NCBI GenBank assembly: GCA_965220975.1
Contig: OZ244855.1
Coordinates: forward strand, 976,967 to 1,040,966
Direction: 5' to 3'
Length of the DNA: 64,000 bases
Source of the DNA: Candidatus Poriferihabitans sp.
GTDB taxonomy: Bacteria; Pseudomonadota; Gammaproteobacteria; Arenicellales; Poriferihabitantaceae
Part shown: positions 20,091-64,000 of the stretch, one piece after another
Layout of the letters: each line of letters opens with the position of its first letter
How positions within the stretch are numbered: the stretch's first letter is position 1
Position numbers and translations under genes: made by a program
Notes under the pieces: generated by a model
Told to the model about the DNA's origin: nothing
What the model saw: the letters and a program-made list of their open reading frames with translations, nothing else
Database searches by the model: none

Positions 20091-21362
20091 ATGACAATAA
20101 ACCGAAATCAAGATCGCATTGATAAAAAGGATGTGATTATTATTGGTGGCGGAATTATTGGTACCGCAACCGCCTGGAATCTGGCAAAAAGAAACAAGCG
20201 GGTCAAGTTGTTCGAAAAGGGCAGTGTAGCTGGTGAGCAATCTGGCCGGAATTGGGGCTCGATACGTTCGCAAAGACGATCAGCTACAGAGTTTCCAATC
20301 ATGCTGGAAGGAATTCGGATTTGGGAAACTCTCGAGAAAGAACTGAATGCAGATCTTGATTAGCGCCAAGAGGGTCATATTCGGCTTTGTTACGATGAAA
20401 AACTGCTAGAGTGGGCTGAGGATTGGGTGCCAATTGGTCGGGAAAATGGTCTTGATACCCGTGTTCTTACACCTGGAGAATGCGAGAAACTATTGCCACA
20501 CTATTCAGCCAAAGGTTTGCTAGGTGCTCTGTATACGCCAACAGACGGGTGTGCCGAACCGATAAAGGTAACAGCTGCGCTGGCACGTTCTGCCTCCCGT
20601 TGTTCTGCCGAAATTATTGAAAATTGTGCAGTACTGCAAATTTTAACGGAGAATGGTCGAGCATCTGGAGTCCTGTCAGAAGAGGGTGAAACTCATGCTG
20701 ACGCGGTCATCGTAACCAGTGGCGCATGGACTAGTCGTCTCCTTAAACCTCTCGGTATTGATCATCCTTCCTTGTGGGTCAGAGCTTCAGCTGCACATAC
20801 CGAAGCCCTGACCATCAATCTGAGAAAGCTGGTTAGTTGGGGTCGTTGCGCATTTCGCCAGAGATCCGACCAGTCCTTGACGCTTGCTGTTGCAGAACAT
20901 GGATGTCACGACCTGATGCTTGATTCTTTTCGTTATGATGCTGCATATCTCAAATTGGTAGTACAGAATCATGACTTGTTTCGTTTTTCACTAGGTCAGC
21001 CTATGCTGGATGACCTTAACGGTCGATTTGATGACTTTGCAAGCACAGAAAATAGAACTCTTGATCCTGCTCCCGATCATGCAGCACTTGAGCGAGCCGC
21101 CAAGTTTTTTGCTGCCGAATATCCAGCTGCACAGCCATTGAAACTAACTCGATCTTGGGCGGGATGGATCGATTATATGCCAGATGCACTACCAGTTCTT
21201 GGTGAGACTCCAAATATATCGGGGCTTTTCGTTGGAGCTGGATTCAGTGGAGGAGGCTTTGGAATGGGGCCAGTCAGCGGAAAGATTCTGTCCGATCTTG
21301 TTTGTGATGGATATACGCCGCATCCTGTGCAGCCACTGTGCCCTTCCAGATTTCAGCGGTAA
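20091..21362 (+). pseudogene. FAD-dependent oxidoreductase (DAO family) interrupted by one in-frame TAG
   Basis: ORFs 20091..20363 and 20427..21362 are in the same frame. The N-terminus has VIIIGGGIIGTATAWNLA (GxGxxG). The TAG at 20361..20363 sits in ...ADLD*RQEGHIRL, where family members usually have W/F. TGG to TAG is one transition. Confidence 0.65.
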
Positions 21363-41149: not shown

Positions 41150-42253
41150 ATGTCTAAACTTTTCAAGTCTCTGTCTGCAACGATTGTTGGTTTGATTCTT
41201 ATCACATCACAGTCTGCACTTGCAGAAGTTGTTATCAAAGTGCAATCAGTTTTGCCCACCAAAGCAGACGAAATCGTTATGGTCAAGGATTTTGCTGCAA
41301 ATGTAGCTGCTTTAACCAATGGCGAGGTCAAGATTGAAGTCCTTCCCGATGGGGCTGTTGTTAGTGGACGCGATATTTTGAATGCAGTCCATACCGGTCT
41401 AGTCGATGCAGGCTTTGCATGGACCCACTATTGGTCTGGTCAACATCCAGCTGCGATGCTGTTTGGTTCTCCCGTAGCAGGTGCCGGGGTTGGTATCGAC
41501 AACATAGCCTTTCTTTCGTGGTATATGAATGGTGGCGGTAAAGAACTATACAACCGCCTGTGGGATGAAATGGGTCTGAATATTCATGGTCTAATGCTTC
41601 AGCCGGTTGGCCCCGAAGCTTTAGGATGGTTCAAAGAACCAATCAACAGCATGGATGATTTTCGAAAATACCGTTTTCGTACACCTCCAGGTATTCCTGG
41701 GCAAACCTATAAAGATATTGGTATCGCCTCTGTCGCTATGGGTGGTGGCGATATCCTGCCTGCTCTGGAAAAAGGAACAATTGATGCTGCCGAATGGTGC
41801 TGTCCGAAACCCGATAGTGTTTTTGGTTTCCAGAAAGTACTCAAACATTACTATTTGCAAGGTCTACATCAGGTAGTTGTCAATGCTGACATGTACATTA
41901 ATGGCGATGTCTGGAACAGCCTCACTAGAGATCAGCAAATTGCCATGGAAGTTGCTGCAGATGCATCCTTGATTCGCTCTTTGAGTTATCGAATTTATGA
42001 AAACGGCAAGGCTCTCAAGGACTTGACCGAGAATCACGGTGTGATCTTGCATGATACTCCTGCTGATTACTTTCCAGAATATATGAATGCGGCTCGTGCA
42101 AGCCTTGAGAAAAACGCGGCAGAAAACGAGTTTTTCGCAGAAGTCTGGAACTCGCAAAAAGAGTTTGCAAAGATCGCTGTACCGTTTTGGGCGGGAGCAC
42201 AATCGTCAAATGCGCAACTTGGACAGGCGTACGCTAAATCCTTGCAGAACTGA
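41150..42253 (+). CDS. TRAP transporter substrate-binding protein (DctP-like, COG4663-type)
   Basis: 367 aa. Signal peptide ends ITSQSALA. GAGG lies upstream. Followed by DctQ- and DctM-like genes. Confidence 0.75.
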   Translation: MSKLFKSLSATIVGLILITSQSALAEVVIKVQSVLPTKADEIVMVKDFAANVAALTNGEVKIEVLPDGAVVSGRDILNAVHTGLVDAGFAWTHYWSGQHPAAMLFGSPVAGAGVGIDNIAFLSWYMNGGGKELYNRLWDEMGLNIHGLMLQPVGPEALGWFKEPINSMDDFRKYRFRTPPGIPGQTYKDIGIASVAMGGGDILPALEKGTIDAAEWCCPKPDSVFGFQKVLKHYYLQGLHQVVVNADMYINGDVWNSLTRDQQIAMEVAADASLIRSLSYRIYENGKALKDLTENHGVILHDTPADYFPEYMNAARASLEKNAAENEFFAEVWNSQKEFAKIAVPFWAGAQSSNAQLGQAYAKSLQN

Positions 42254-48473: not shown

Positions 48474-48539
48474 TCTTGGCGCAAGAAGCTCCTGTGCTGA
48501 AAGAGGCTAATGCCCTCGGTCGCAAACTTGATCAAGCTA

Positions 48540-48969
48540 GGGTGTATTAACGCTAATCAGTGCATCGACGATGAGCGCGAAGACGATGAATCCGAGGAAC
48601 ATGATGTCGAGTTTCTCGAAGCGCGAGAACACACGTCGGAAGCCCTTGAGCCGCCGGAACAGGCACTCGAACTCGCGGTCCAGAACGCCGTTCTTCGACC
48701 ACCGGTTCATGCACGTGTAGATGGTGTGCCCGTTTCCGAAGTGCTCCGGCAGACCGCGCCACTTGCAGCCGTGCTCGGCCACGTAGAGAATGGCATTGAG
48801 GACCTGCAGGTTCGAGAGGCTGACATTGCCCCACTGCCTCAGCAACAGTGGCACAATGCGCTCATACTGTATCCGGATGAGTTCCACTTGCCTGTTCCTC
48901 CGCATTGCTTCAACTGAAAACAAGGGTGGCAAGTCTACCACATCCATGGCAAACTATGTTAACACGCCC
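48540..48969 (-). mobile_element. 430-bp internally deleted IS5-family (IS427-like) element
   Basis: Inverted ends are GGGTGTATTAAC (48540 onward) and GGGCGTGTTAAC (reverse complement of the 48969 end). They are flanked by TA (48538..48539) and TA (48970..48971) within C-TA-G. The 136-aa ORF 48537..48947(-) fuses the N-terminal HTH part (LNAILYVAEHGCKWRGLPEHFGNGHTIYTCMNRWSKNGV) to the C-terminal tail (RRLKGFRRVFSRFEKL). The DDE core is missing. GC-rich. Confidence 0.75.
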
Positions 48970-49017: not shown

Positions 49018-49745
49018 TGAACCAGGAGTCCGCCATCAACGGATATCACGGCACCATTGATGAAGTTGCGGCATCGCTGACCAGCATTTAAATAACGGAA
49101 TATCTAGTTTCATGCATCTGTCCGACCCGGCCAGCAGATGTTTTTTCAATATATGCAGTCCCGGTACCAGAATCCAGATACTCTGGTTCATGTCTGTCTC
49201 GAAATAGCCAGGAAAGAGCGCATTGAAACGAACCCTCTTGGGTCAAGCTCCAGTGCCATAATTCTGGCAAGTTGAATAACTCCATCTTTTGAGACCGAAT
49301 AGGCTGACTGCCCAAGGCTCGGTTGCATCCCAAGGATAGAAGCAATATTCAGGATACATCCGGATCTATGGTTTTTCAGCATGAATCGGGAAACCACTCG
49401 TGAAAGTCGAAACATTCCATGTAAGTTGTTCTCCATGATTCCAGACCGGCTTGCTCCTCGATTCACGTAAAACGAGCTGAATGAACAATTCCTGCATTAT
49501 TGACCAGAATATCGATCGGCCCCAAGGCGTTGATCACCGATTTAACAGCATTGCAAATAGAGGTGCTACTTTAGACATCAAGCTCGACTGATAACGTCCT
49601 GTTTGACAGGCCAGAGGCAACATGGTTGAGCTTCATGAGACTCCAGCCCACAATTGCGCCCGTTGCCCAGGCTTGATCTAGTACATGCGCGAAATGAGCA
49701 CCTAATCCGCCTGATGTGCCGGTAACCAAGGCTACTCAACAGCAA
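49018..49745 (-). pseudogene. Decayed SDR gene
   Basis: The minus strand reads LVTGTSGGLG..., then LDV*, ...IDILVNNAGI..., FT*, ...NIASILG...YSVSKDG..., and a C-terminal INGAVISVDGGLLVQSL*. Several stops and frame changes are present. Confidence 0.7.
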
Positions 49746-49811: not shown

Positions 49812-50103
49812 TGGCGTCCCCGAGAGGATTCGAACCTCTGACCTGTCGCTTCATACCCGCCACAGTTTTCACTGCCAGTTAATGACTGTTTGGAGTCTGG
49901 ACTATCTCTTGACCATGAGCATGACTGCCCGTAGGCCCCACCCGTTTAGTCTCTATACCTTCCGTTGTCGGCTTGGCTAGGGATTGCCATCGGCTTAAAC
50001 CGTTAAGGTTTCCCCTAATTTGAGTGGATTCATCCAGGGAGTTTCCAGCCCCGATGCCCAATATTTAGGAGGCGACCGTTCTATCCTGCTGAACTACGGG
50101 GAC
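49812..50103 (-). tRNA. tRNA-Arg(CCU) interrupted by a group I intron (exons 50103..50067 and 49851..49812; CCA encoded)
   Basis: The spliced sequence is GTCCCCG-TA-GTTC-AGCAGGATA-GAAC-G-GTCGC-CTCCTAA-GCGAC-AGGTC-AGAGG-TTCGAAT-CCTCT-CGGGGAC-G-CCA. It folds as a canonical 77-nt cloverleaf with anticodon CCT. Confidence 0.85.
49852..50066 (-). ncRNA. Group I intron (IC3-like), 215 nt, no ORF
   Basis: Inserted after U36 of the anticodon loop and ending in G (...GGGUAUG|AAGCGAC). The core strings are UCAAAUUAGGGGAAACC, AUGGCAAUCCCUAGCCAAGC and GAAGGUAUAGAGACUAAACGG. They closely parallel the bacterial tRNA-intron (Azoarcus-type) core as I remember it. Confidence 0.8.
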
Positions 50104-50256
50104 GCATAATCACTATTTTAACAGAATCTAGATTGGGCGGGTCAGGCGCTACTTGATAACGGCAGAGTCGGGTTATTTATTTAACTTATTGTATTATAAT
50201 AATTTTATTATAAGTAAATTTAGGTTTAGAAATAACTGAAATCCGCATCACATATG

Positions 50257-50810
50257 GAGTTATGGCTGAAAGTAGTGCGCGGGGCGGAAAGGGGTTCATC
50301 CAGCGGCTACCGTGTTCTGATCTGATTGTACCTCGATTCCGTCCTGGAACTGCACTTCCTCGATGACCTGTCCCAGCCTGCGGAACCCGCGCAGCCTTCG
50401 CCAGCGGGATTCCGCGCACTGGCCGAGCTTGAACATCATGTCGAGCATGGTGTCGCGGCTCAGGCAGCCCCGGGTCGTCCGGGTCCGGTGGCGGGTCGTG
50501 GCGAAGGTCGACTCGATCGAGTTGGTGGTGCGAATGCTCTGCCAGCGCTCGGCCGGAAAGTCGAAGAAGTTCATCCGTTTCTCGCGATCCTCGATCAGCT
50601 TCACCGCCGCGCCAGCAACTGCTGGGCGCCGTCGCACAGAATCCCGGTCAGGGCGTCCTCAAATTTTCCGATTTGCGAATAGTCAATAATGTTATCATCT
50701 CTCATGGTGGCGTACCTCCTGGTCAGCTTTTTAGTTAATGGAATAGTTAATCCGGCTACGCCGTCTTTTCAACCCCCTCCCACCCCGCGTACTACTCTCG
50801 ACCATAACTC
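50257..50810 (-). mobile_element. 554-bp internally deleted IS256-family element
   Basis: Terminal inverted repeats are GAGTTATGGCTGAAAGTAGTGCGCGGGGCGGAAAGGGGTT (50257 onward) and GAGTTATGGTCGAGAGTAGTACGCGGGGTGGGAGGGGGTT (reverse complement of the 50810 end). The transposase remnant has the N-terminus MRDDNIIDYSQIGKFEDALTGILCDGAQQLL. It is joined out of frame to the C-terminus FFDFPAERWQSIRTTNSIESTFATTRHRTRTTRGCLS. Confidence 0.85.
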
Positions 50811-51104
50811 ATCTCAGAAGCCCATATTGTATAAATATGTCTCGGCGGCGAGATAATAAATTGAAGTGAGAATCAAAAATTCAAAGGGTGAAGAAAATTC
50901 TGGAGTTGCAAGAGTTGCTCATTATCTCAATGAGAGAGACACTCGGGTTGTGTGCAGGTCGCCCGACGTTGGGCGGCAGGAGAACTACCGAAATTGTCCG
51001 ATTTCAAAATTGAAGCAAAAGTTCTCCATTTTCGAGAATACGGTCTATAATCTGCCTCAGCCAACTGAAAATGTAAAGGAATCAAGTAGAGGGGATTCGG
51101 ATTG

Positions 51105-54008
51105 ATGGGTCGGAACACTGAAGGAGTATTCAACGTCATTTTAGCCAATGTATTACGTGAGATGCATCCACGCTGGCATCAATACATTGAAGCCGAACAG
51201 ACACGTAAATTCGTTAACCATTGGAGTCGGCAACCAGACCTATTAATCCACCACCCCAAAGGTCTGCCTGTAATCGTAGAAACTGAGTTTATGCCGGGCC
51301 GAACCGTCGAAGATGATGCCAAGAGTCGTCTTGGAGAGATGCTGGAAGCAGACAGCAATCCGATTGAGCAAACCATTGCGGTACGTATACCTCAGCAACT
51401 CAGCGTCGCGAGTCAGGGAGATTTATCGCGATTGATTCGAGAAACAACCGATTTTCATTTTTGTGTATTTTCCGCGGGAACAAAAGATGCCATTCGATGG
51501 CCCGAAAATGGCTGGCTGAAGGGTAATGTCAAAGATCTGGCTACTCTGATCGAACATGCTTCTCTGTCCGAAAATCGAATCGCCAGTGGAGTAAGAATTC
51601 TTGAAACAGGTGTTGCCCAAGCAAGTTACATGCTTCGAGAAGCAGGAAAAGACGCACCTGATGCGCTCAGAAACATCGCAGAAGAACTAAGACAGCAAGA
51701 CTGTGAACAGACTTCCCGCATGGCCATGGCAATAGTTGCAAATGCCATGATATTTCATAATGCTATCGCTGGACAAGAGAACATCAAATCCATTGATGAA
51801 CTTCGTAATTTTCGAGGTCGCTTGCTGAAAGTATATTTGCTTGAACACTGGCATTTCATCTATTACAACATCAATTACTGGCCAATCTTTTTCATTGCTC
51901 GACAGATCATGTTGCCCATTCCTGATCGCACTGCGCACAATATTTTGAACAGGTTAGCCAAAGCAGCTAGTCAACTAGCCGACCTTGGGACAACCAGCCA
52001 GCTGGATTTAGCCGGAAGAATGTTCCAGCAACTGATTACCGACCGGAAATTCCTGGCTACCTTCTATACCTTACCCAGTTCCGCCACCTTGCTAGCAGAG
52101 TTAGCCGTTTCAAGACTAGCCATTGATTGGGCAAATGAAAAAGCCGTTACTGGATTGCGGATTGGGGATTTTGCGTGTGGAACGGGGGCTCTACTGAATG
52201 CCGCATATGGCGCTGTGATGGCGAGATATCGGCGAGCAGGCGGAGATGATCAGGCGATCCACTCACAGATGATGGAACATGCTTTGGTGGGTGCTGATAT
52301 CATGCCTTCAGCAGTGCATTTAACGGCAACGATTTTATCGAGCAGGCACCCAAATATCACGTTCGGAGATACGTCTATTGGAATCTTAAGATATGGAATG
52401 CCGGAAGAAGGAAGTGGTCATAAGTTAAGTTTGGGCGCCTTGGATTTCTTAGAGGACGAAGCGACAATGCCAATTTGGGGCACAGGACACAAGAACGTTC
52501 ATGGTATCAAGGAGGATAGCAAGCAGGAATTACATATCAAGCATGGATCTTTCGATTTGGTCATTATGAATCCGCCTTTTACACGACCTACGGGTCAAGA
52601 AGCGGAGAGGATCGGCGTCCCAGTCCCTTCTTTCGCAGCTTTTGGAACGGAAGAAGAGATTCAGCGAGCGATGTCAGTTGAACTCAAAAAAATGACCAAG
52701 CCCGGCATGGCTGGTGACGGGCAAGCGGGGCTGGCATCAAACTTCATCGACTTGGCGCATAAAAAACTCAAGCCAGGTGGCGTTTTGGCACTGATATTGC
52801 CGTCTACCTTTATTCAGGGCGATGCATGGGAAAAATCTCGCAAGCTGATTCATGAGCACTATCATGACATTTGCATCTTTAGTATAGCGGCCACTGGTTC
52901 TACCGACCGTGCGTTTTCTGCAGATACCGGCATGGCGGAAGTAATGGTGCTTGCTACTCGCCGTAGCAAGGAGAGCAAGTCAGCTAAAACTGATGCTGCT
53001 TATATCAACCTGCACAGGAGGCCCCAATCGATGCTGGAAGCTTTTGCAATGGGCAAGCCGGAAATCAATTTCGAGGCAGGTGCAAAGGACGGTTCGTATG
53101 AAATTGGCAAAGAACGGGTTGGCAACTGGATTGTAGCTGAGTTGTCCGAGGGAGGATTTGCGGGTGTTCGTGAAAATGATGTTTCCCGATTTGCTCATCA
53201 CTTGGAACGAAGCGAATTGGTACTTCCCAGGATGAGTAAGACCGTCAGGGTCCCTCTATGCCCACTTTCTGAGCTTGGAGAACGTGGGCTGTATCATATG
53301 GATTTGACAGGAACAGAGCAAAATAGCGATGGACAACCACGAGGCCCGTTCGAAAAGAAACTGCTAATCCAGGGTGAAATTCCAACATATCCCATGTTAT
53401 GGTCACATGATGCGAAGCGCGAGACCTCGTTTATAGTTGAAATCGATTCTTGTGGTAGGCCTCGTATCGACTGTGAGGGTCGGGCACTAAAGGCGTGGCA
53501 GAAAACAGCGACTCGGCTACACTTCAATCGGGATTTCCGGCTCAACTCGCAGCCATTGGCGGCTTGCATGACTCGGGAGCCATCAATTGGCGGTCGGGCC
53601 TGGCCGAACTTCGTATGCGAAAATCAAGGATGGGAGCTAATTTTGGCTTTGTGGGGAAACACTACACTCGGATTGATCGCATTTTGGTGGGCAGGCACGC
53701 GCCAACAACAAGGAAGAGCCTGCCTACCTATATCCCTATTGCCCGCCTTGCTTACGCTTGATGTCCGTAAATTATCCAGTGAACAATTATCCAAAGGAGA
53801 TGAAATATTCGAGAGTTTTGCGGATCAACATTTTCGTCCGGCCAATGAGGCGTGGGATGATGCGGTGCGCCAAGACCTGGATCGATCCGTATTGATCGAT
53901 CTTTTGGAGTTGCCTGTTCACATTCTGGAACCTCTGGATCTGCTCAGGAAGCAATGGTGTGCAGAGCCAACCGTTCATGGAGGAAAAAACACAAGACCAG
54001 CCATCTAA
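51105..54008 (+). CDS. Type IIG/IIL-like restriction-modification fusion: PD-(D/E)xK-like N-terminus, gamma-class N6-adenine methyltransferase, and C-terminal specificity region
   Basis: About 967 aa. The N-terminus has QPDLLIHHPKGLPVIVETEF. SAM motif I is IGDFACGTGALLNAAY (about 52161..52208). Motif IV is MNPPF (NPPF codons 52569..52580). About 350 aa after the methyltransferase core have no recognised motif. Confidence 0.65.
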   Translation: MGRNTEGVFNVILANVLREMHPRWHQYIEAEQTRKFVNHWSRQPDLLIHHPKGLPVIVETEFMPGRTVEDDAKSRLGEMLEADSNPIEQTIAVRIPQQLSVASQGDLSRLIRETTDFHFCVFSAGTKDAIRWPENGWLKGNVKDLATLIEHASLSENRIASGVRILETGVAQASYMLREAGKDAPDALRNIAEELRQQDCEQTSRMAMAIVANAMIFHNAIAGQENIKSIDELRNFRGRLLKVYLLEHWHFIYYNINYWPIFFIARQIMLPIPDRTAHNILNRLAKAASQLADLGTTSQLDLAGRMFQQLITDRKFLATFYTLPSSATLLAELAVSRLAIDWANEKAVTGLRIGDFACGTGALLNAAYGAVMARYRRAGGDDQAIHSQMMEHALVGADIMPSAVHLTATILSSRHPNITFGDTSIGILRYGMPEEGSGHKLSLGALDFLEDEATMPIWGTGHKNVHGIKEDSKQELHIKHGSFDLVIMNPPFTRPTGQEAERIGVPVPSFAAFGTEEEIQRAMSVELKKMTKPGMAGDGQAGLASNFIDLAHKKLKPGGVLALILPSTFIQGDAWEKSRKLIHEHYHDICIFSIAATGSTDRAFSADTGMAEVMVLATRRSKESKSAKTDAAYINLHRRPQSMLEAFAMGKPEINFEAGAKDGSYEIGKERVGNWIVAELSEGGFAGVRENDVSRFAHHLERSELVLPRMSKTVRVPLCPLSELGERGLYHMDLTGTEQNSDGQPRGPFEKKLLIQGEIPTYPMLWSHDAKRETSFIVEIDSCGRPRIDCEGRALKAWQKTATRLHFNRDFRLNSQPLAACMTREPSIGGRAWPNFVCENQGWELILALWGNTTLGLIAFWWAGTRQQQGRACLPISLLPALLTLDVRKLSSEQLSKGDEIFESFADQHFRPANEAWDDAVRQDLDRSVLIDLLELPVHILEPLDLLRKQWCAEPTVHGGKNTRPAI

Positions 54009-56378: not shown

Positions 56379-57992
56379 TTACGGTTCGTTATCACAACCA
56401 CAAGACGGCATAGGGGAATTTTGGCGATTGAAGTAATCAACCAGAAAATCATCAAAACTCATTGAATCTGCGTTTTCGATATCCTTTTGGGCTTGATGAG
56501 ACTCCCGAGACAGGGATTCGAATTTCTTCGAGATATCAGCCTTAAGCTGAGAATTTTTAAAATACAGTTCAGTCTCTTCGGCCAGCTCCATTGCAAACTC
56601 GTAGAAACTCTCTTTATTGCTGGCAACTCGAGAAACGATCTGTCCGGATGGAGTCAGTTCTGGATGCTCAACCTTGAATCTTTGCGATTGAAGGGCAAGC
56701 CGATAATTAATACTATTCTCAAGAGAATCCAGCAACTCTGCTAGAGGCGTTAATGCATCCAACAATTCATGCATTTGTACCAAAGCCTTTCTTTTTCCAC
56801 TGGCCAGGGTAATCTCGGAATCAGGATTGCGTCCATTTATGACCATTTCCTGCTGATTCTTGCAGGTCAATTGAAATTCTGCATCATCCATATTCGGACT
56901 ATCCATCAACAAACAGGCAAGTAGCAATAAATCATAAAAACGAATGCAATCTTGATCAATACCTACTGGTACAAATGGATTCAGGTCAATGTTTCGGATT
57001 TCAACATATTCAACACCTCCAAGACATAGTGCCCTAGATGGACTCTGCCCGGATTTGGCTACCCGCTTGGGGCGTATTGATGCATAAAATTCATTTTCTA
57101 TTTGTAGCAAATTGGAGTTTAATTGCCGGTAATGTCCGTTGGTTTTAACTCCGATCTTTTCGTATAAAGGATACGAAGTTTGAATAGCATGGCGTAATGA
57201 TTGGACGAAAGACTCAACATCGTTGTAATTGATTTGAATATCATTTTGGGCATCATTGCTATAGCCGAGATGACTTAATCGAAGTGAAGTGGCTGTCGGA
57301 CCATAGAACGTATGGCAATGTAACGGCGTCAGGGAGTGCTCACGATCATGCAGAAAAGTCTGACATACTGCAGGAGAAGCGCCAAACAGGTAAATTGTCA
57401 CCCATGACAAACGATGATAATTTCGGATCAGGCCAAAATACCGTTTCGACTTGTAGTTTTTAACATCATTAATATTTTCTTGTTCAGCAATCTTAGACCA
57501 GAAATCTTCAGGCAACGAAAAGTTGTAATGGATGCCCGCAATCGTCTGCATCAGCGAACCATAACGATGATGTAGACCCTCCCGATATACTTCTTTCATG
57601 CGTGCAATATTTGATGTCCCATACTGAGCAATTGGGATTTGCTCCTCGCTTTCAACAATACATGGCATGCTATTGACCCACAGTTTCTCATTGCCGATAT
57701 GCTGATAGGTAAAATGATGAATATTATGCAGTTCCAGCAGGAGCTCGGATATCTCCGTGTGAATACCGGTCACAAATTCGAGTAGAGATTCCGAATAGTC
57801 AGTAGTGATGGAACTGTGGGTAAGACTCGAGCCCAAGGCATATGGATGAGGAGTTGAAGCCAGTGTTCCATCAGGTGTGACACGAAGACTTTCTTTTTCA
57901 ATGCCACGGTTCAATTGTCCCAAGTATTGCCCTAGCTCACGGTTAAGCAGGGAATCCACTGCTTTTTTCAAACTGTCAGACAAAACAGACAT
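56379..57992 (-). CDS. gshA: Glutamate-cysteine ligase, proteobacterial type
   Basis: 537 aa. Motifs: RGIEKESLRV, HSSITTDYSESLLEFVTG, GIHYNFSLP. These match the E. coli-type GshA pattern. Confidence 0.85.
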   Translation of the reverse strand: MSVLSDSLKKAVDSLLNRELGQYLGQLNRGIEKESLRVTPDGTLASTPHPYALGSSLTHSSITTDYSESLLEFVTGIHTEISELLLELHNIHHFTYQHIGNEKLWVNSMPCIVESEEQIPIAQYGTSNIARMKEVYREGLHHRYGSLMQTIAGIHYNFSLPEDFWSKIAEQENINDVKNYKSKRYFGLIRNYHRLSWVTIYLFGASPAVCQTFLHDREHSLTPLHCHTFYGPTATSLRLSHLGYSNDAQNDIQINYNDVESFVQSLRHAIQTSYPLYEKIGVKTNGHYRQLNSNLLQIENEFYASIRPKRVAKSGQSPSRALCLGGVEYVEIRNIDLNPFVPVGIDQDCIRFYDLLLLACLLMDSPNMDDAEFQLTCKNQQEMVINGRNPDSEITLASGKRKALVQMHELLDALTPLAELLDSLENSINYRLALQSQRFKVEHPELTPSGQIVSRVASNKESFYEFAMELAEETELYFKNSQLKADISKKFESLSRESHQAQKDIENADSMSFDDFLVDYFNRQNSPMPSCGCDNEP

Positions 57993-59067: not shown

Positions 59068-59423
59068 ACCATTCTGTTTTACTCGACAGAGCTTTTTATC
59101 CAACAAACCCCAATTCAAGCTTGGCAAGTATTCGGTCAATCCCATGTAGAAACGTTCGTTCCTGGTAATCACCCCTTCGGCCATGAAATCCCCGGATTAC
59201 AATTGACTCGACAACTGCATCATCCATACCGGTTGAGTCGCGACCAGAATTGCGAGATAGTTGTCCAAAAGCCGCCTGGAATGGATCGTTGTCATCCATG
59301 CAAAATCAGGAAACAGCATCTCAATGGCGATGGCCTTTTACTAGAACATCGATTCGTCAACTAATACATTACAAGGCAATAAACAGCAACTGCTCGCTTC
59401 AGCAATGTCAAGATGATCGCATC

Positions 59424-61015
59424 ATGAGTGAAAAAACACGAACAGATCGCCATCCGCTACCGCTTGGACTTGAATCATTTCGCAGACTTCGAGAGAGGGG
59501 CTGTTATTATGTGGATAAAACGCCCCTGATCCGGCAAATGATCAACGAGGGTGATTTCTACTTCCTCTCTCGTCCGTGCCGTTTCGGCAAGAGTCTGCTG
59601 GTCGATACCTTGCAGGAACTGTTCGAGGGCAATGAGTCGCTGTTCGAAGGCCTGGACATCCACCCGCACCGGGACTGGTCGGTCAGGCATCCGGTGGTTC
59701 GTCTGACCCTGGATGGGGTTGTCAGTACGCCAGAGAAGCTGGAAGACAGCGTGTCAGGCCAGCTGCACAAGACTGGAAAGAACTTCAACCTGGAACGCCC
59801 TCCGGCAAAGTATGCTGCGGAACGGCTTCGGTATATCCTTTTCGAATTGCATCAGGCGACTGGCCAACAGGTGGTGGTACTGGTCGATGAACATGACAAG
59901 CCGGTGCTGGACGTACTGGAAGATGACGAGAAGGCTAAAGCGAACAGGGATAGCCTTCGGGAGATCTACAGCATCCTGAAGAGTGCTCAAAAACACATCC
60001 GCTTCGTGTTCGTGACCGGCATCACGATGTTTTCCAAGGCCAGTTTTTCATCCGGCCTGAACAATCTCACGAACATCAGCCTGTCGCCGAGGTATGCGGC
60101 CATCTGCGGCTATACGGACCAGGATCTGGAGACCGTATTTGCTCCGGAACTGGAAGGTCTGGATCGGGACAGGATTCGCGAATGGTACAACGGCTACAAC
60201 TGGCTGGGCGAGGACAAGCTCTACAATCCCCACGACATTCTGCACCTCTTTTATGAACGTGAATATACGGAGCACTGGTTCGAATCCGGGGGCCGGGTTA
60301 TCTCTACCGGATACTGGAGAAGAACCGGGTCAGTCCCCTGCAGCTGGAAAACCTCGTGGTCGAAGCCTCCTCTCTGAAAAAGCTTGAACTGGGCACGTTC
60401 AGTCCCGAGGCCCTGCTGTTCCAGTCCGGTTATCTGACCATCAAGGAAATGGAACTGCAAGACAAACGCATTCTGTACCATCTGGCCTTTCCGAATTTTG
60501 CAGTACAGAGAAGTTTCAACTACGGGATGGCCGAGCACTTGACCAAGCAGGGTGAGCAAGTTACAGTTCCGGGAAAGGGACTGCTTCAAGCCCTGGGAGA
60601 GAACGACTTTTCTGCATTCAGGCAGAAAATTCGGGAATTGCTTCCGAATCTTCCGCATGCTTGGCATGACAGCGGAAAGCTTGGTCATCATGAGTCCTGG
60701 TATGCGAGCATGCTGTACATGAGTTTTCGAACAACAACCGCCAACCTGGCAGTCGAGGAAATGACCAGTCAGGGCCGCTCGGACATGGTGCTGCTGCATG
60801 AGAATCAGGTGTTCGTGTTCGAGTTCAAGATGGTGAAGGGCTAAAGAAACATGGAAAGAAAGACCAGGGAACGTCTGGACAGGGCGATCGAACAAACTCG
60901 CGCAAAAAAGTATGCCGAGAAGTATCTTGACTGCCGGGAACCGATTCACCTGATCGGCATGGCATTTGGCGAGAAAGCTCGAAACCTGCTGGATATTCGG
61001 GTGGAGAGGCTTTGA
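59424..61015 (+). pseudogene. AAA-ATPase-like plus PD-(D/E)xK (PDDEXK_9-type) gene, disrupted by one frameshift and one in-frame TAA
   Basis: The start reads MSEKTRTDRHPLPLGLESFRRLRERGCYYVDKTPLI...RPCRFGKSL. The frame switches at the G5 run 60288..60292: WFESGG followed by PGYLYRILEKN continues in another frame. A TAA at 60842..60844 interrupts ...FEFKMVKG*RNMERKTRERLDRAIEQTRAKKYAEKY. The stop is at 61013..61015. Visibly GC-rich. Confidence 0.7.
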
Positions 61016-62453: not shown

Positions 62454-64000
62454 TTAGTTTCTCTTCCTAATAGGTTGTAAATTTGTCTTTTTTTTACCTC
62501 GTTTACCCTGTATATGGACTTGAGAGTATTCCAGGAGCTTTAGTTGACAGCCAACTGCTTTCGTGTCTGCATTCTTGCGGGAGACATAACTTCCGTCGGA
62601 GCACATTTCCCAGCTGTCTACATGATCATTCATCAGGGTATCGAGAATGAGTTTTAGAGATTCCTTCAGAGACTTTTTCTCAATGGGAGTAACAACTTCA
62701 ACTCGACTTTCCAGATTTCGCTTCATGATGTCGGCAGATCCGATAAAATATTCATGCTTTCCGTTATTCTGGAAATAAAAGATTCGGCTGTGCTCAAGGA
62801 ACCGGCCGACTACGCTAATTACGGTAATACTCTCGGATAAATTTGCAACTTTTGGTCGCAGACGACAGGTATCCCGAACAATGAGTTCAACCTTGACGCC
62901 AGCGATTGATGCTTTGTACAAATCTTTCACCACATCCTTATCCTCCAAGGCATTGGTTTTTATCCGAATCAAGCCATTTTTTCCATTTTCGACATGTTTG
63001 ATCTCAGTAGCAATCCGTTTTCTCAGCTCGTTTTTGAGATCAATCGGTGCAATCACAATATGTTTGAATTGGCGTTTTTTGATATGCCCGGTAGTTAGGA
63101 AGTTGAATAGTTCGGTAGCATCTTCACCTATTTCCTTGTTACAAGTTAGAAGTCCAAGGTCTGTATACAGTTTTGCAGTTCCGCCATGGTAGTTTCCGGT
63201 GCCGATATGAACATAGCGTTGCAATTGCTTTTTTTCTCTACGAATAACTAAGAGCACTTTACTGTGTGTCTTAAATCCGACTACACCATAGGTTACATGA
63301 ATGCCAGCTTCTTCTAGACGTTCCGCCCAGTTAATATTATTCGCTTCGTCAAACTTTGCCTTGATTTCAACAACTACAGCGACTTGTTTCCCATTGTTTG
63401 CCGCTTCAATTAACAGGTCAACTATACGAGTTTCACGATCAGTTCTATACAAGGTCATCTTAATTGCCCTTACTGACTCATCGCGGGCTGCTTCGCCTAG
63501 AAACCTGACTACAGATCCGGAAAATGATTCGTATGGATGCTGGAGTAATATCGCTTCCTCCTCACGAATGAGATTGAAGATACTCCGTTGGTTATCTTGT
63601 AGCCGATGATGATTGATTGGTTGATGCGGAGGATAGCGCAAATTCGCAACTGGCAAGTTAGTAAGCTCAAAGAGATCTCTGCGTGCCAATAGGCCATTGG
63701 TTTCATAAACGTCGAGTTCCGAGTCGAGACCGAGTAATTCTGTAAGCATACTCTTGCGTTCCGGGTTCATTCCCTTGTTAACTACCATACGAACAATTGG
63801 TGCAATTCTCCGATCTCGTAATTCCAATTCGATCATTGACAAGAGGTCGGCTGCGCCGGATTCCTGACGTTCTGTGCTTGCATTACGTGCAACGAAAAAG
63901 AAATCATATTCAAATTCATTCTCGCCTGGAAATAGTAGATCGAGATTATTTGCAACGATTTGTTCAAGAGGAACAAAACGGTAATCATCTACTTTGATGA
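62454..64000 (-). CDS. ppk: Polyphosphate kinase 1 (C-terminal about 515 aa; the N-terminus lies beyond the window edge)
   Basis: The frame stays open to position 64000. Motifs: FKTHSKVLLV (PLD-like HxK), FLEHSRIFYF, VEIKAKFDE. Confidence 0.85.
   Translation of the reverse strand, partial: IKVDDYRFVPLEQIVANNLDLLFPGENEFEYDFFFVARNASTERQESGAADLLSMIELELRDRRIAPIVRMVVNKGMNPERKSMLTELLGLDSELDVYETNGLLARRDLFELTNLPVANLRYPPHQPINHHRLQDNQRSIFNLIREEEAILLQHPYESFSGSVVRFLGEAARDESVRAIKMTLYRTDRETRIVDLLIEAANNGKQVAVVVEIKAKFDEANNINWAERLEEAGIHVTYGVVGFKTHSKVLLVIRREKKQLQRYVHIGTGNYHGGTAKLYTDLGLLTCNKEIGEDATELFNFLTTGHIKKRQFKHIVIAPIDLKNELRKRIATEIKHVENGKNGLIRIKTNALEDKDVVKDLYKASIAGVKVELIVRDTCRLRPKVANLSESITVISVVGRFLEHSRIFYFQNNGKHEYFIGSADIMKRNLESRVEVVTPIEKKSLKESLKLILDTLMNDHVDSWEMCSDGSYVSRKNADTKAVGCQLKLLEYSQVHIQGKRGKKKTNLQPIRKRN

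Follow-up and report, generated by a model that had tools for sequence, protein, structure and literature searches.

IC3 is among the subgroups of bacterial group I introns, and crystal structures of the Azoarcus pre-tRNA-Ile are cited in this context (PMC3984707). According to PMC7717549, which cites Paquin et al. 1999, group I introns interrupting tRNA-Arg(CCU) were discovered in Agrobacterium tumefaciens and subsequently seen in further Alphaproteobacteria; a sequence-only reading of the DNA analyzed here had likewise mentioned such introns from alphaproteobacteria. One such intron, BbgpI of Bartonella bacilliformis, self-splices in vitro (PMC7717549), and the alphaproteobacterial intron is flanked by CCT direct repeats (PMC7717549). 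No tRNA-Arg(CCU) intron was found reported in the literature consulted for Gammaproteobacteria, which is not proof of absence. The present study concerns a 64,000-nucleotide (nt) stretch of contig OZ244855.1 (positions 976,967 to 1,040,966), hereafter the window, from an uncultured gammaproteobacterium. To judge from its sequence, the minus strand of the window very probably harbors a functional tRNA-Arg(CCU) gene in which a 215-nt, IC3-like self-splicing group I intron that contains no open reading frame (ORF) separates U36 from A37.

The window intron shares with its alphaproteobacterial counterparts the interrupted tRNA, the insertion point (CCU/A, the slash marking the splice junction) and the guide UUGGG(C), as well as the P1-P9 plan, the GAAA sequences in loops L2 and L9, the lack of an ORF and, in some of them, the ...UAUG end. 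It differs in its host, the described introns of the Agrobacterium/Bartonella type being from Alphaproteobacteria, and in its size, the tRNA-Arg(CCU) introns at loci L026, L092, L115, L042, L097 and L014 measuring 235-252 nt. Relative to these relatives, P5, P6 and P8 are shorter and P4 has A-U in place of the C-G pair seen in nearly all others (34 of the 36 sequences aligned below). The tRNA-Ile(CAU) intron of Azoarcus sp. BH72 was compared by way of Azoarcus-like introns (L003, L057, L064, L087; labelled tRNA-Met(cat) by ARAGORN). These have the same core strings (UCAAAUU-GG-GAAAC, AGCCAAGC, GAAGGU-UAGAGACUA-ACGG and AUAGUCCAG), the same domain order and the same location in the anticodon loop, but they interrupt another tRNA, use another guide, have the P9/3' end CACAAACC-G and reach the Rfam threshold (L064). 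Assignment of the window intron to IC3 is based on homology to bacterial tRNA introns rather than on a subgroup classifier, hence our wording "IC3-like".

Identification of the split tRNA-Arg(CCU) gene

When introns were allowed, ARAGORN called a single gene in the 64-kb window, tRNA-Arg(cct) c[49812,50103], in which ...CTCCT is separated from AAGCG... by an intron of 215 nt. In its default mode the program called no tRNA gene across the window, and 20 shuffled versions of the window gave no call in intron mode. Joining of the minus-strand exons 50103-50067 and 49851-49812 yields a 77-nt tRNA-Arg(CCU), the 5' exon, intron (50066-49852) and 3' exon being 37, 215 and 40 nt long. This is the gene model that had been put forward from sequence alone, with the same coordinates, and every string quoted in its favor is present on the minus strand. 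The joined exons form a canonical cloverleaf with a 7-bp acceptor stem and an encoded CCA (ARAGORN). The 5' exon (50067..50103) ends in the anticodon CCU, with U36 at 50067, and is 100% identical in three sister-lineage copies of the gene (L122, L126 and L128; see below). The 3' exon (49812..49851), from A37 to the CCA, is delimited by ARAGORN and by the sister-lineage alignment. Insertion between U36 and A37 places the intron in a loop which, in the joined exons, comprises 7 nt (CUCCUAA) on a 5-bp anticodon stem (GUCGC/GCGAC); the two junctions read ...CTCCT/AAAT...TATG/AAGCG. In 24 of the window's long ORFs, 9.5% of the Arg codons are AGG, so that a tRNA-Arg(CCU) has work to do.

The insert itself (49852..50066, omega-G at 49852) was identified as a group I intron by a full-length match to the Rfam family Intron_gpI (RF00028), by alignment to 35 bacterial tRNA introns, by covariation and by its conservation in sister lineages. 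The Rfam match extends from 50079 to 49882 on the minus strand, covers the whole model (positions 1-253) and scores 45.6 bits, with an E-value of 1.8e-10 in a 551-nt search and of 2e-8 in the whole window. In E-value mode, Intron_gpI was the sole RNA family in the window at E<=0.01.

Secondary structure of the intron

A P1-P9 structure was drafted for the window intron by homology (all positions below are on the minus strand). Paired fractions and numbers of double-change pairs, which refer to the numbered helices of the structure, are from the comparison of 36 introns described in the next section. P1 (50057..50069) is formed by CCUAA (50069-50065) and the internal guide UUGGG (50061-50057), the splice site lying between 50067 and 50066; of its five pairs, three involve the exon (one of these is the U.G wobble) and two are intron A-U pairs, around a 3-nt loop (helix 1: 97% paired, U.G in 35/35 sequences, 3 double-change pairs). 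The short CCU/GGG pairing originally proposed as P1 is part of the helix, which the two A-U pairs make longer. The UU of the guide could in addition pair with the AA that opens the 3' exon, giving a 2-bp P10. P2 (50031..50056) is a hairpin of CAUCGGGG with CCCUG(G)AUG, as delineated by the sister-lineage alignment, with one bulged nucleotide and a 9-nt loop, CUGGAAACU, that contains GAAA (50045-50042). In the sequence-only reading, the bulge of P2 had been assigned to the wrong G: sister lineages place it at intron nt 33, the second G of ...CUGGAUG, where they have G, A or C while the neighbors remain paired. The P2 pair between intron nt 15 and 31 is G.U, G-C or A-U in these lineages.

In P3, the 5' strand CCACUC (50022..50027) pairs with GGGUGG (49943-49938; helix 3: 99.5% paired, 4 double-change pairs, with an A-U to G-C change within the clade). 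The P4-P5 domain (49978..50017) comprises P4, UAGGGG (50017-50012) with UCCCUA (49983-49978), P5, CC with GG (50008-50007 / 49988-49987), and a small P5a hairpin (helices 4 and 5: 98.6% and 100% paired). A 7-bp version of P4 was rejected, its last G being part of P6. P6/P6a (49957..49977) has closing pairs GC/GU followed by CCG-ACAA-CGG (helix 7: 100% paired), P6a differing in length between lineages. The 5' strand of P7, GAGACUA (49947..49953), has a bulged A and pairs with UAGUCC (49904-49899); this helix (helix 10) is invariant in 36/36 sequences. P7 is presumed to be the guanosine-binding helix and to form a pseudoknot with P3-P8. P8/P8a (49911..49937) reads GGCC...GGUC around CCUACG...CAUGG and GGGCA-GUCA-UGCUC (helices 11 and 12: 99% and 90% paired, 6 double-change pairs). 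The P9 domain (49855..49896) is made of a long-range ACUC/GGGU helix (49896-49893 / 49858-49855) enclosing CAGU-CAUUA-ACUG and GCAGU-GAAA-ACUGU (helices 14-16: 91%, 93% and 76% paired, 11 double-change pairs, with an A-U to C-G change in P9b within the clade). A local GACU/AGUC hairpin following P7, present both in the minimum free energy fold and as the last helix of the Rfam alignment, was rejected because homologues keep the long-range ACUC/GGGU pairing with covariation. The intron ends in ...GGGUAUG at 49852, and the terminal G is found in all four members of the clade and in 7/7 other tRNA-Arg(CCU) introns.

All helices of the P3-P4-P6 and P7-P3-P8 core, including the P3/P7 pseudoknot, can form in the window sequence, and each structural feature of the class that could be looked for was found. 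The plan is compact: P5 is a short hairpin without a P5abc extension, and GAAA occurs both in L2 and in L9 (49870-49867). Contacts between tetraloops and their receptors, L2 with P8 and L9 with P5, are reportedly seen in the Azoarcus crystal structure. In the window intron, the P8 sequence CCUACG...CAUGG and the P5 sequence CCUUAAC...GAUGG are variants of the CCUAAG...UAUGG motif. By this resemblance, the P8 sequence may serve as a tetraloop receptor. The absence of an ORF, as claimed from the sequence, was upheld: a 60-codon open stretch (49879-50061) considered as an endonuclease remnant was rejected as too short, and it is not conserved, its frame being broken in L122 and L126.

Covariation across bacterial tRNA introns

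When GTDB genomes were searched for the J6/7-P7 string AAGGTNTAGAGACTANACGG, at least 120 loci were obtained (L002-L121). ARAGORN in intron mode found an intron-split tRNA in roughly 105 of those listed; most were tRNA-Leu(UAA), the others being labelled Met/Ile(CAU), Ser, Thr, Phe or Arg(UCU). Where the label is, for example, Phe(aaa), Ser(aga) or Tyr(ata), ARAGORN has probably set the junction one or two bases off. The matches listed also include seven introns in tRNA-Arg(CCU), from Methylobacterium/Methylorubrum (L026, L092, L115), Xanthobacter (L042), Herbaspirillum (L097), Microcoleus (L015) and a metagenome-assembled genome (MAG) of an unclassified proteobacterium (L014). All seven share the insertion point of the window intron. 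The guide is UUGGGC in six of them and UCGGGC in Microcoleus; the 3' end is UAUG/AA, as in the window, in three, with single-base variants in three more. In the same set of matches, IC3-like introns were noted in Saccharibacteria (L105) and Kaiserbacteria (L113), both of the candidate phyla radiation, and in Acidobacteriota, Chloroflexota and Bacteroidota.

The window intron, with 8 nt of exon on each side, was aligned with 35 tRNA introns using MAFFT, which is blind to structure. Sixty columns of this 36-intron alignment are invariant, including those of UCAAA-U-GG-G-A..C, AGCCAAGC, GAAGGU-UAGAGACUA-ACGG and AUAGUCC. When the P1-P9 structure was projected onto the alignment, 88.3% of 2188 cells were paired, as compared with 32-44% when the 3' partners were slid by 1-3 columns. 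Changes on both sides were seen in 41/64 pairs, and none of 500 shuffles reached any of the observed measures. P1, P3, P4, P5, P8 and the long-range helix of P9.0 type are 91-100% paired across the 36 introns; P7 never varies and is uninformative on covariation. The claim that the insert lines up with IC3 tRNA introns is borne out, helix for helix, by bacterial tRNA introns including the Azoarcus-like ones of tRNA-Ile(CAU).

Conservation in sister lineages

Relatives of the window have a conserved gene order around GshA (DusA-GshA-Cys/Met enzyme-166-aa gene ... ADH-SDR-HisD-DctMQP), with the split tRNA-Arg(CCU) gene in the gap. The closest copy, L128 (GshA identity 81%), has a 215-nt intron and a pre-tRNA 96.2% identical to that of the window; the corresponding values are 80%, 214 nt and 92.8% for L122-L125, and 70%, 218 nt and 88.5% for L126. 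Independent assemblies of ENA, NCBI and Logan samples have this split gene at the syntenic site. In a four-way alignment of the window with L128, L122 and L126, all 77 exon positions are identical. The introns of the sister lineages are 88-96% identical to the window intron, which is thus better conserved than the flanking DNA (70-86% identical where alignable).

Among the four lineages, 17/63 intron pairs vary; five of these change on both sides and three break the pairing, the latter in P6a and P8a, where lengths differ. Compensatory changes within the clade include A-U to G-C in P3 and in P8a and A-U to C-G in P9b, and are also found in P9a. Variable columns account for 21 of 125 paired positions and for 27 of 92 unpaired ones. 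This pattern of variation indicates that the RNA structure is under selection and is not that of a relic. We take the intron to be vertically inherited and under purifying selection in an uncultured clade of gammaproteobacteria from sponge metagenomes. The four lineages, with their invariant exons and compensatory intron changes, provide a natural series in which an ORF-less group I intron has been kept by vertical descent over the long term. Scans of the JGI metagenomes revealed neither an intron-less allele nor further members of the clade: there were 0 hits to the last 27 nt of the 5' exon, and a clade-specific P4-P6 string matched nothing but a tRNA-Leu intron that is unrelated (L132).

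Upstream of the gene, TGnTAnAAT is the sole block conserved in the four lineages, the remaining DNA there not being alignable. In the window, this block (TGTTAAAAT; 50115..50123, minus strand) stops 11 nt short of the 5' end of the mature tRNA and is a putative extended -10 promoter element.

Evaluation of alternative explanations and proposed mechanism

Several observations weigh against the view that the locus is a functional gene with a self-splicing intron. Splicing competence is something we infer from sequence, and the tertiary contacts are uncertain, the receptor-like motifs in P5 and P8 deviating from the canonical 11-nt receptor. The single-sequence minimum free energy fold lacks the group I core and has an energy of -68.3 kcal/mol, versus -48.6 kcal/mol for the homology structure lacking P7. 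In the comparative data, the middle invariant block and the P7 5' strand were fixed by the search pattern and are not independent evidence, so that in P7 it is the constancy of the 3' strand that is informative; the structure was derived from the window sequence, which favors it over the slid controls; and the sequences are related. A scan for a two-hexamer consensus found no promoter, missing the TGnTAnAAT element, and no intrinsic terminator was found at the tRNA gene. Lastly, the curated gathering score of RF00028 is 50 bits, and an Rfam run at this setting reported nothing for the locus, whose 45.6 bits fall short of it. The sequence-only reading had made its case depend on a significant covariance-model hit; this was obtained on E-value (2e-8 in the whole window) but not on the curated Rfam threshold.

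The sub-threshold score could be taken to mean that the intron is a decaying relic that has lost splicing, the locus being a tRNA pseudogene in a degrading region. Such a reading would fit with the neighbors of the gene, which are transposase fragments and a piece of an SDR pseudogene, and with the truncated look of several other window genes relative to their relatives. It is nonetheless very unlikely, as the exons are 100% identical in four lineages in which GshA differs by 19-30%, and as the intron has been kept better than its flanks, with compensatory changes that maintain pairing. The U.G pair, the omega-G and intact P7 and J8/7 are all retained. In L122, a clean intergenic gap of 1.6 kb holds the gene, and hence the insertion sequence (IS) debris around the window gene is secondary. 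As to the score, all six other tRNA-Arg(CCU) introns tested, namely L014, L042, L097 and, from the sister lineages, L122, L126 and L128, are below the gathering score as well; the Azoarcus-like tRNA-Ile(CAU) intron L064, with 64.5 bits, was the only one to pass out of seven tested. A score under the threshold is therefore a trait of the tRNA-Arg(CCU) intron family and not a sign of decay. That the split gene might be a chance match or an assembly artefact, such as a chimeric contig joining two tRNA halves around unrelated DNA, was suggested by the low coverage of the metagenome contig (6x by its name). The E-value of 2e-8 and the lack of ARAGORN calls in shuffled sequence speak against it, and it is refuted by the independent assemblies, all of which have this split gene at the position expected from synteny, leaving this explanation with next to no probability.

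A third possibility accepts the group I intron as genuine but supposes that it requires a host protein or chaperone and does not splice by itself. P1 has only three exon pairs and P10 only two, the receptor motifs in P5 and P8 are non-canonical, and group I introns are presumed to need some protein help in vivo (PMC7717549). On the other hand, similarly short P1 and P10 helices follow from the sequences of other tRNA-Arg(CCU) introns, both GAAA loops are present, and the family member BbgpI splices unaided in vitro (PMC7717549). Protein dependence thus seems improbable, if less so than decay.

We favor the view that the window intron works like the tRNA introns of Azoarcus and Agrobacterium, and predict that its splicing proceeds as follows. 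The gene would be transcribed, probably from the conserved extended -10 promoter. The P1-P9 core would fold, as the covariation shows, with the guide UUGGG pairing with the CCU exon end and the first two A residues of the intron and with the U.G wobble placed at the 5' splice site. By analogy with the family, a free guanosine bound in P7 would then attack the 5' splice site; the terminal G215 would take its place in the P7 pocket while the UU of the guide pairs with the AA of the 3' exon; and the freed 3'-OH of U36 would attack the 3' splice site, ligating the anticodon loop CU-CCU-AA and releasing the intron.

It is conceivable, though doubtful, that the intron is more than a neutral passenger. 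Fixed and vertically inherited in a sponge-associated clade, and possibly located in the sole tRNA-Arg(CCU) gene, it might make AGG decoding dependent on a ribozyme and tunable by GTP, Mg2+ or temperature. In the same scenario, it may have been acquired by phage transfer and transposition from tRNA-Leu to tRNA-Arg. The suggestion of a phage-mediated origin stems from the finding, described below, that the nearest sampled full-length relative sits in a phage-type tRNA array with several intron-split tRNAs.

Consequences for annotation

The expectation that standard finders might miss the gene proved correct for ARAGORN in its default mode and for Rfam at the gathering score; tRNAscan-SE 2.0 is, by its authors' statement, not designed for group I introns in tRNA genes (PMC8450103). 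With these tools, the genome would be annotated as having no tRNA-Arg(CCU), and a split gene missed in this way distorts estimates of the tRNA complement and codon capacity of symbiont MAGs. The tRNA-Arg(CCU) intron family is systematically under-annotated in default Rfam runs. The intron type is already well known and no new mechanism is involved, so that the main practical value of the finding is the correction of annotation. The finding also adds a clade of uncultured Gammaproteobacteria to the hosts of the tRNA-Arg(CCU) intron, which the literature consulted describes from Alphaproteobacteria alone, a modest widening of its host range. Known gammaproteobacterial introns in the anticodon loop are likewise missed by annotation, but interrupt other tRNAs. 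Split tRNAs from this class among the GTDB matches listed are the Arg(UCU) of Vibrio agarilyticus (L050) and the Leu(UAA) of Halioglobus, Carnimonas and Microbulbifer.

Relatedness to other tRNA introns

In 175 core columns that align well, identity between the window intron and the best GTDB introns among the matches listed is 69-73%. For the tRNA-Arg(CCU) introns nearest to it in this set, those of Herbaspirillum (L097) and Xanthobacter (L042), the figure is about 70-72%, and equal values (about 0.73) were obtained with introns of Ser, Leu and Thr tRNAs. The best pre-tRNA BLAST match among those listed is the betaproteobacterial Arg(CCU) gene of Herbaspirillum (68% over 315 nt), with whose intron the window intron pairs loosely in a neighbor-joining tree, outside the cluster of alphaproteobacterial Arg(CCU) introns.

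IMG/VR, scanned with the pattern used for GTDB, again gave at least 120 loci. Among the matches listed, the best full-length match outside the clade was an intron in tRNA-Leu(UAA) on viral contigs (L162, L230), 74% identical over 217 nt. Its P9b hairpin, GGCAGUGAAAACUGU, is identical and its P5 starts in the same way, with GAAACCUUAAC, but it differs in its guide (UUGAG), its tRNA, its longer P1 loop and its location on a contig of viral type. Since both scans list only part of the loci (at least 120 each) and were ascertained on one motif, no origin is drawn from this match. In L162, one of 10 sampled ORFs matches a PHROG family, the other nine being ORFans. The tRNA arrays of the two contigs (L162 12957-13868 and L230 3526-5058) each contain two to three tRNAs split by IC3-like introns, namely Arg(UCU), Leu(UAA) and a third called SeC(tca) by ARAGORN. 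Searches of plasmid and phage records returned only distant core matches, at 68-81% identity. In one of these records, Gordonia phage Daredevil (NC_048021.1), an unannotated stretch at 41904-41971 is 81% identical over ~70 nt to the P6-P7-P3 core of the window intron, which suggests that it may belong to an unannotated group I intron.

Host and genomic surroundings

The window belongs to a 268-kb metagenome contig in ENA (ERZ25072152:ctg52131_6x_l). GshA of the window (56379-57992, minus strand) is 100% identical to protein P0001, which is encoded on a contig of 3.37 Mb. Its nearest named relatives, ~80% identical, are labelled 'MAG: Gammaproteobacteria bacterium', and more distant ones belong to Arenicellales, Acidiferrobacterales and Pseudomonadales. 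By these relatives the host is gammaproteobacterial, in line with the sequence-only reading. Attribution of the relatives to sponge-metagenome studies is from sample labels (ROBB21, NGUY21, SHAF22) and MAG accessions only.

Upstream of the tRNA gene is a C-terminal fragment of an IS256-family transposase (50296..50637, minus strand; NF033543, E=2.3e-12, covering only profile positions 271-332 of 338), which is absent from the syntenic gap of L122. Downstream of the tRNA lies an N-terminal fragment of an IS5-family transposase (48537..48947, minus strand; NF033580, E=2.3e-25, only profile positions 4-76 of 258; PF13340). Profile searches also identified an SDR pseudogene fragment (49188-49466) and a gene for a 968-aa Eco57I/PglX-like DNA methyltransferase (51102-54008, plus strand). 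The description of the locus as an IS-rich decay zone is accurate locally, as far as the IS256, IS5 and SDR fragments are concerned, but the tRNA gene is intact, the debris being secondary. In L122, the tRNA gene stands alone in its 1.6-kb gap, without the methyltransferase gene or the IS256 and IS5 fragments. A contig of the same species (L131) has still more IS copies in the interval, its locus ending before the tRNA; it carries a copy of the methyltransferase gene, ~92% identical at the DNA level, farther from gshA. The methyltransferase gene and the IS fragments look like island and IS accretion beside a tRNA gene.

Most of the window consists of ordinary metabolic genes. Two look truncated relative to their sister-lineage orthologues, those for polyphosphate kinase (62454-63842; 462 versus 713 aa) and for an AAA-ATPase_like protein (59250-60377; 375 versus 530 aa), and a DAO-domain gene (20427-21362) matches only the C-terminal part of its profile. 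These truncated-looking genes are consistent with ongoing gene decay in the genome.

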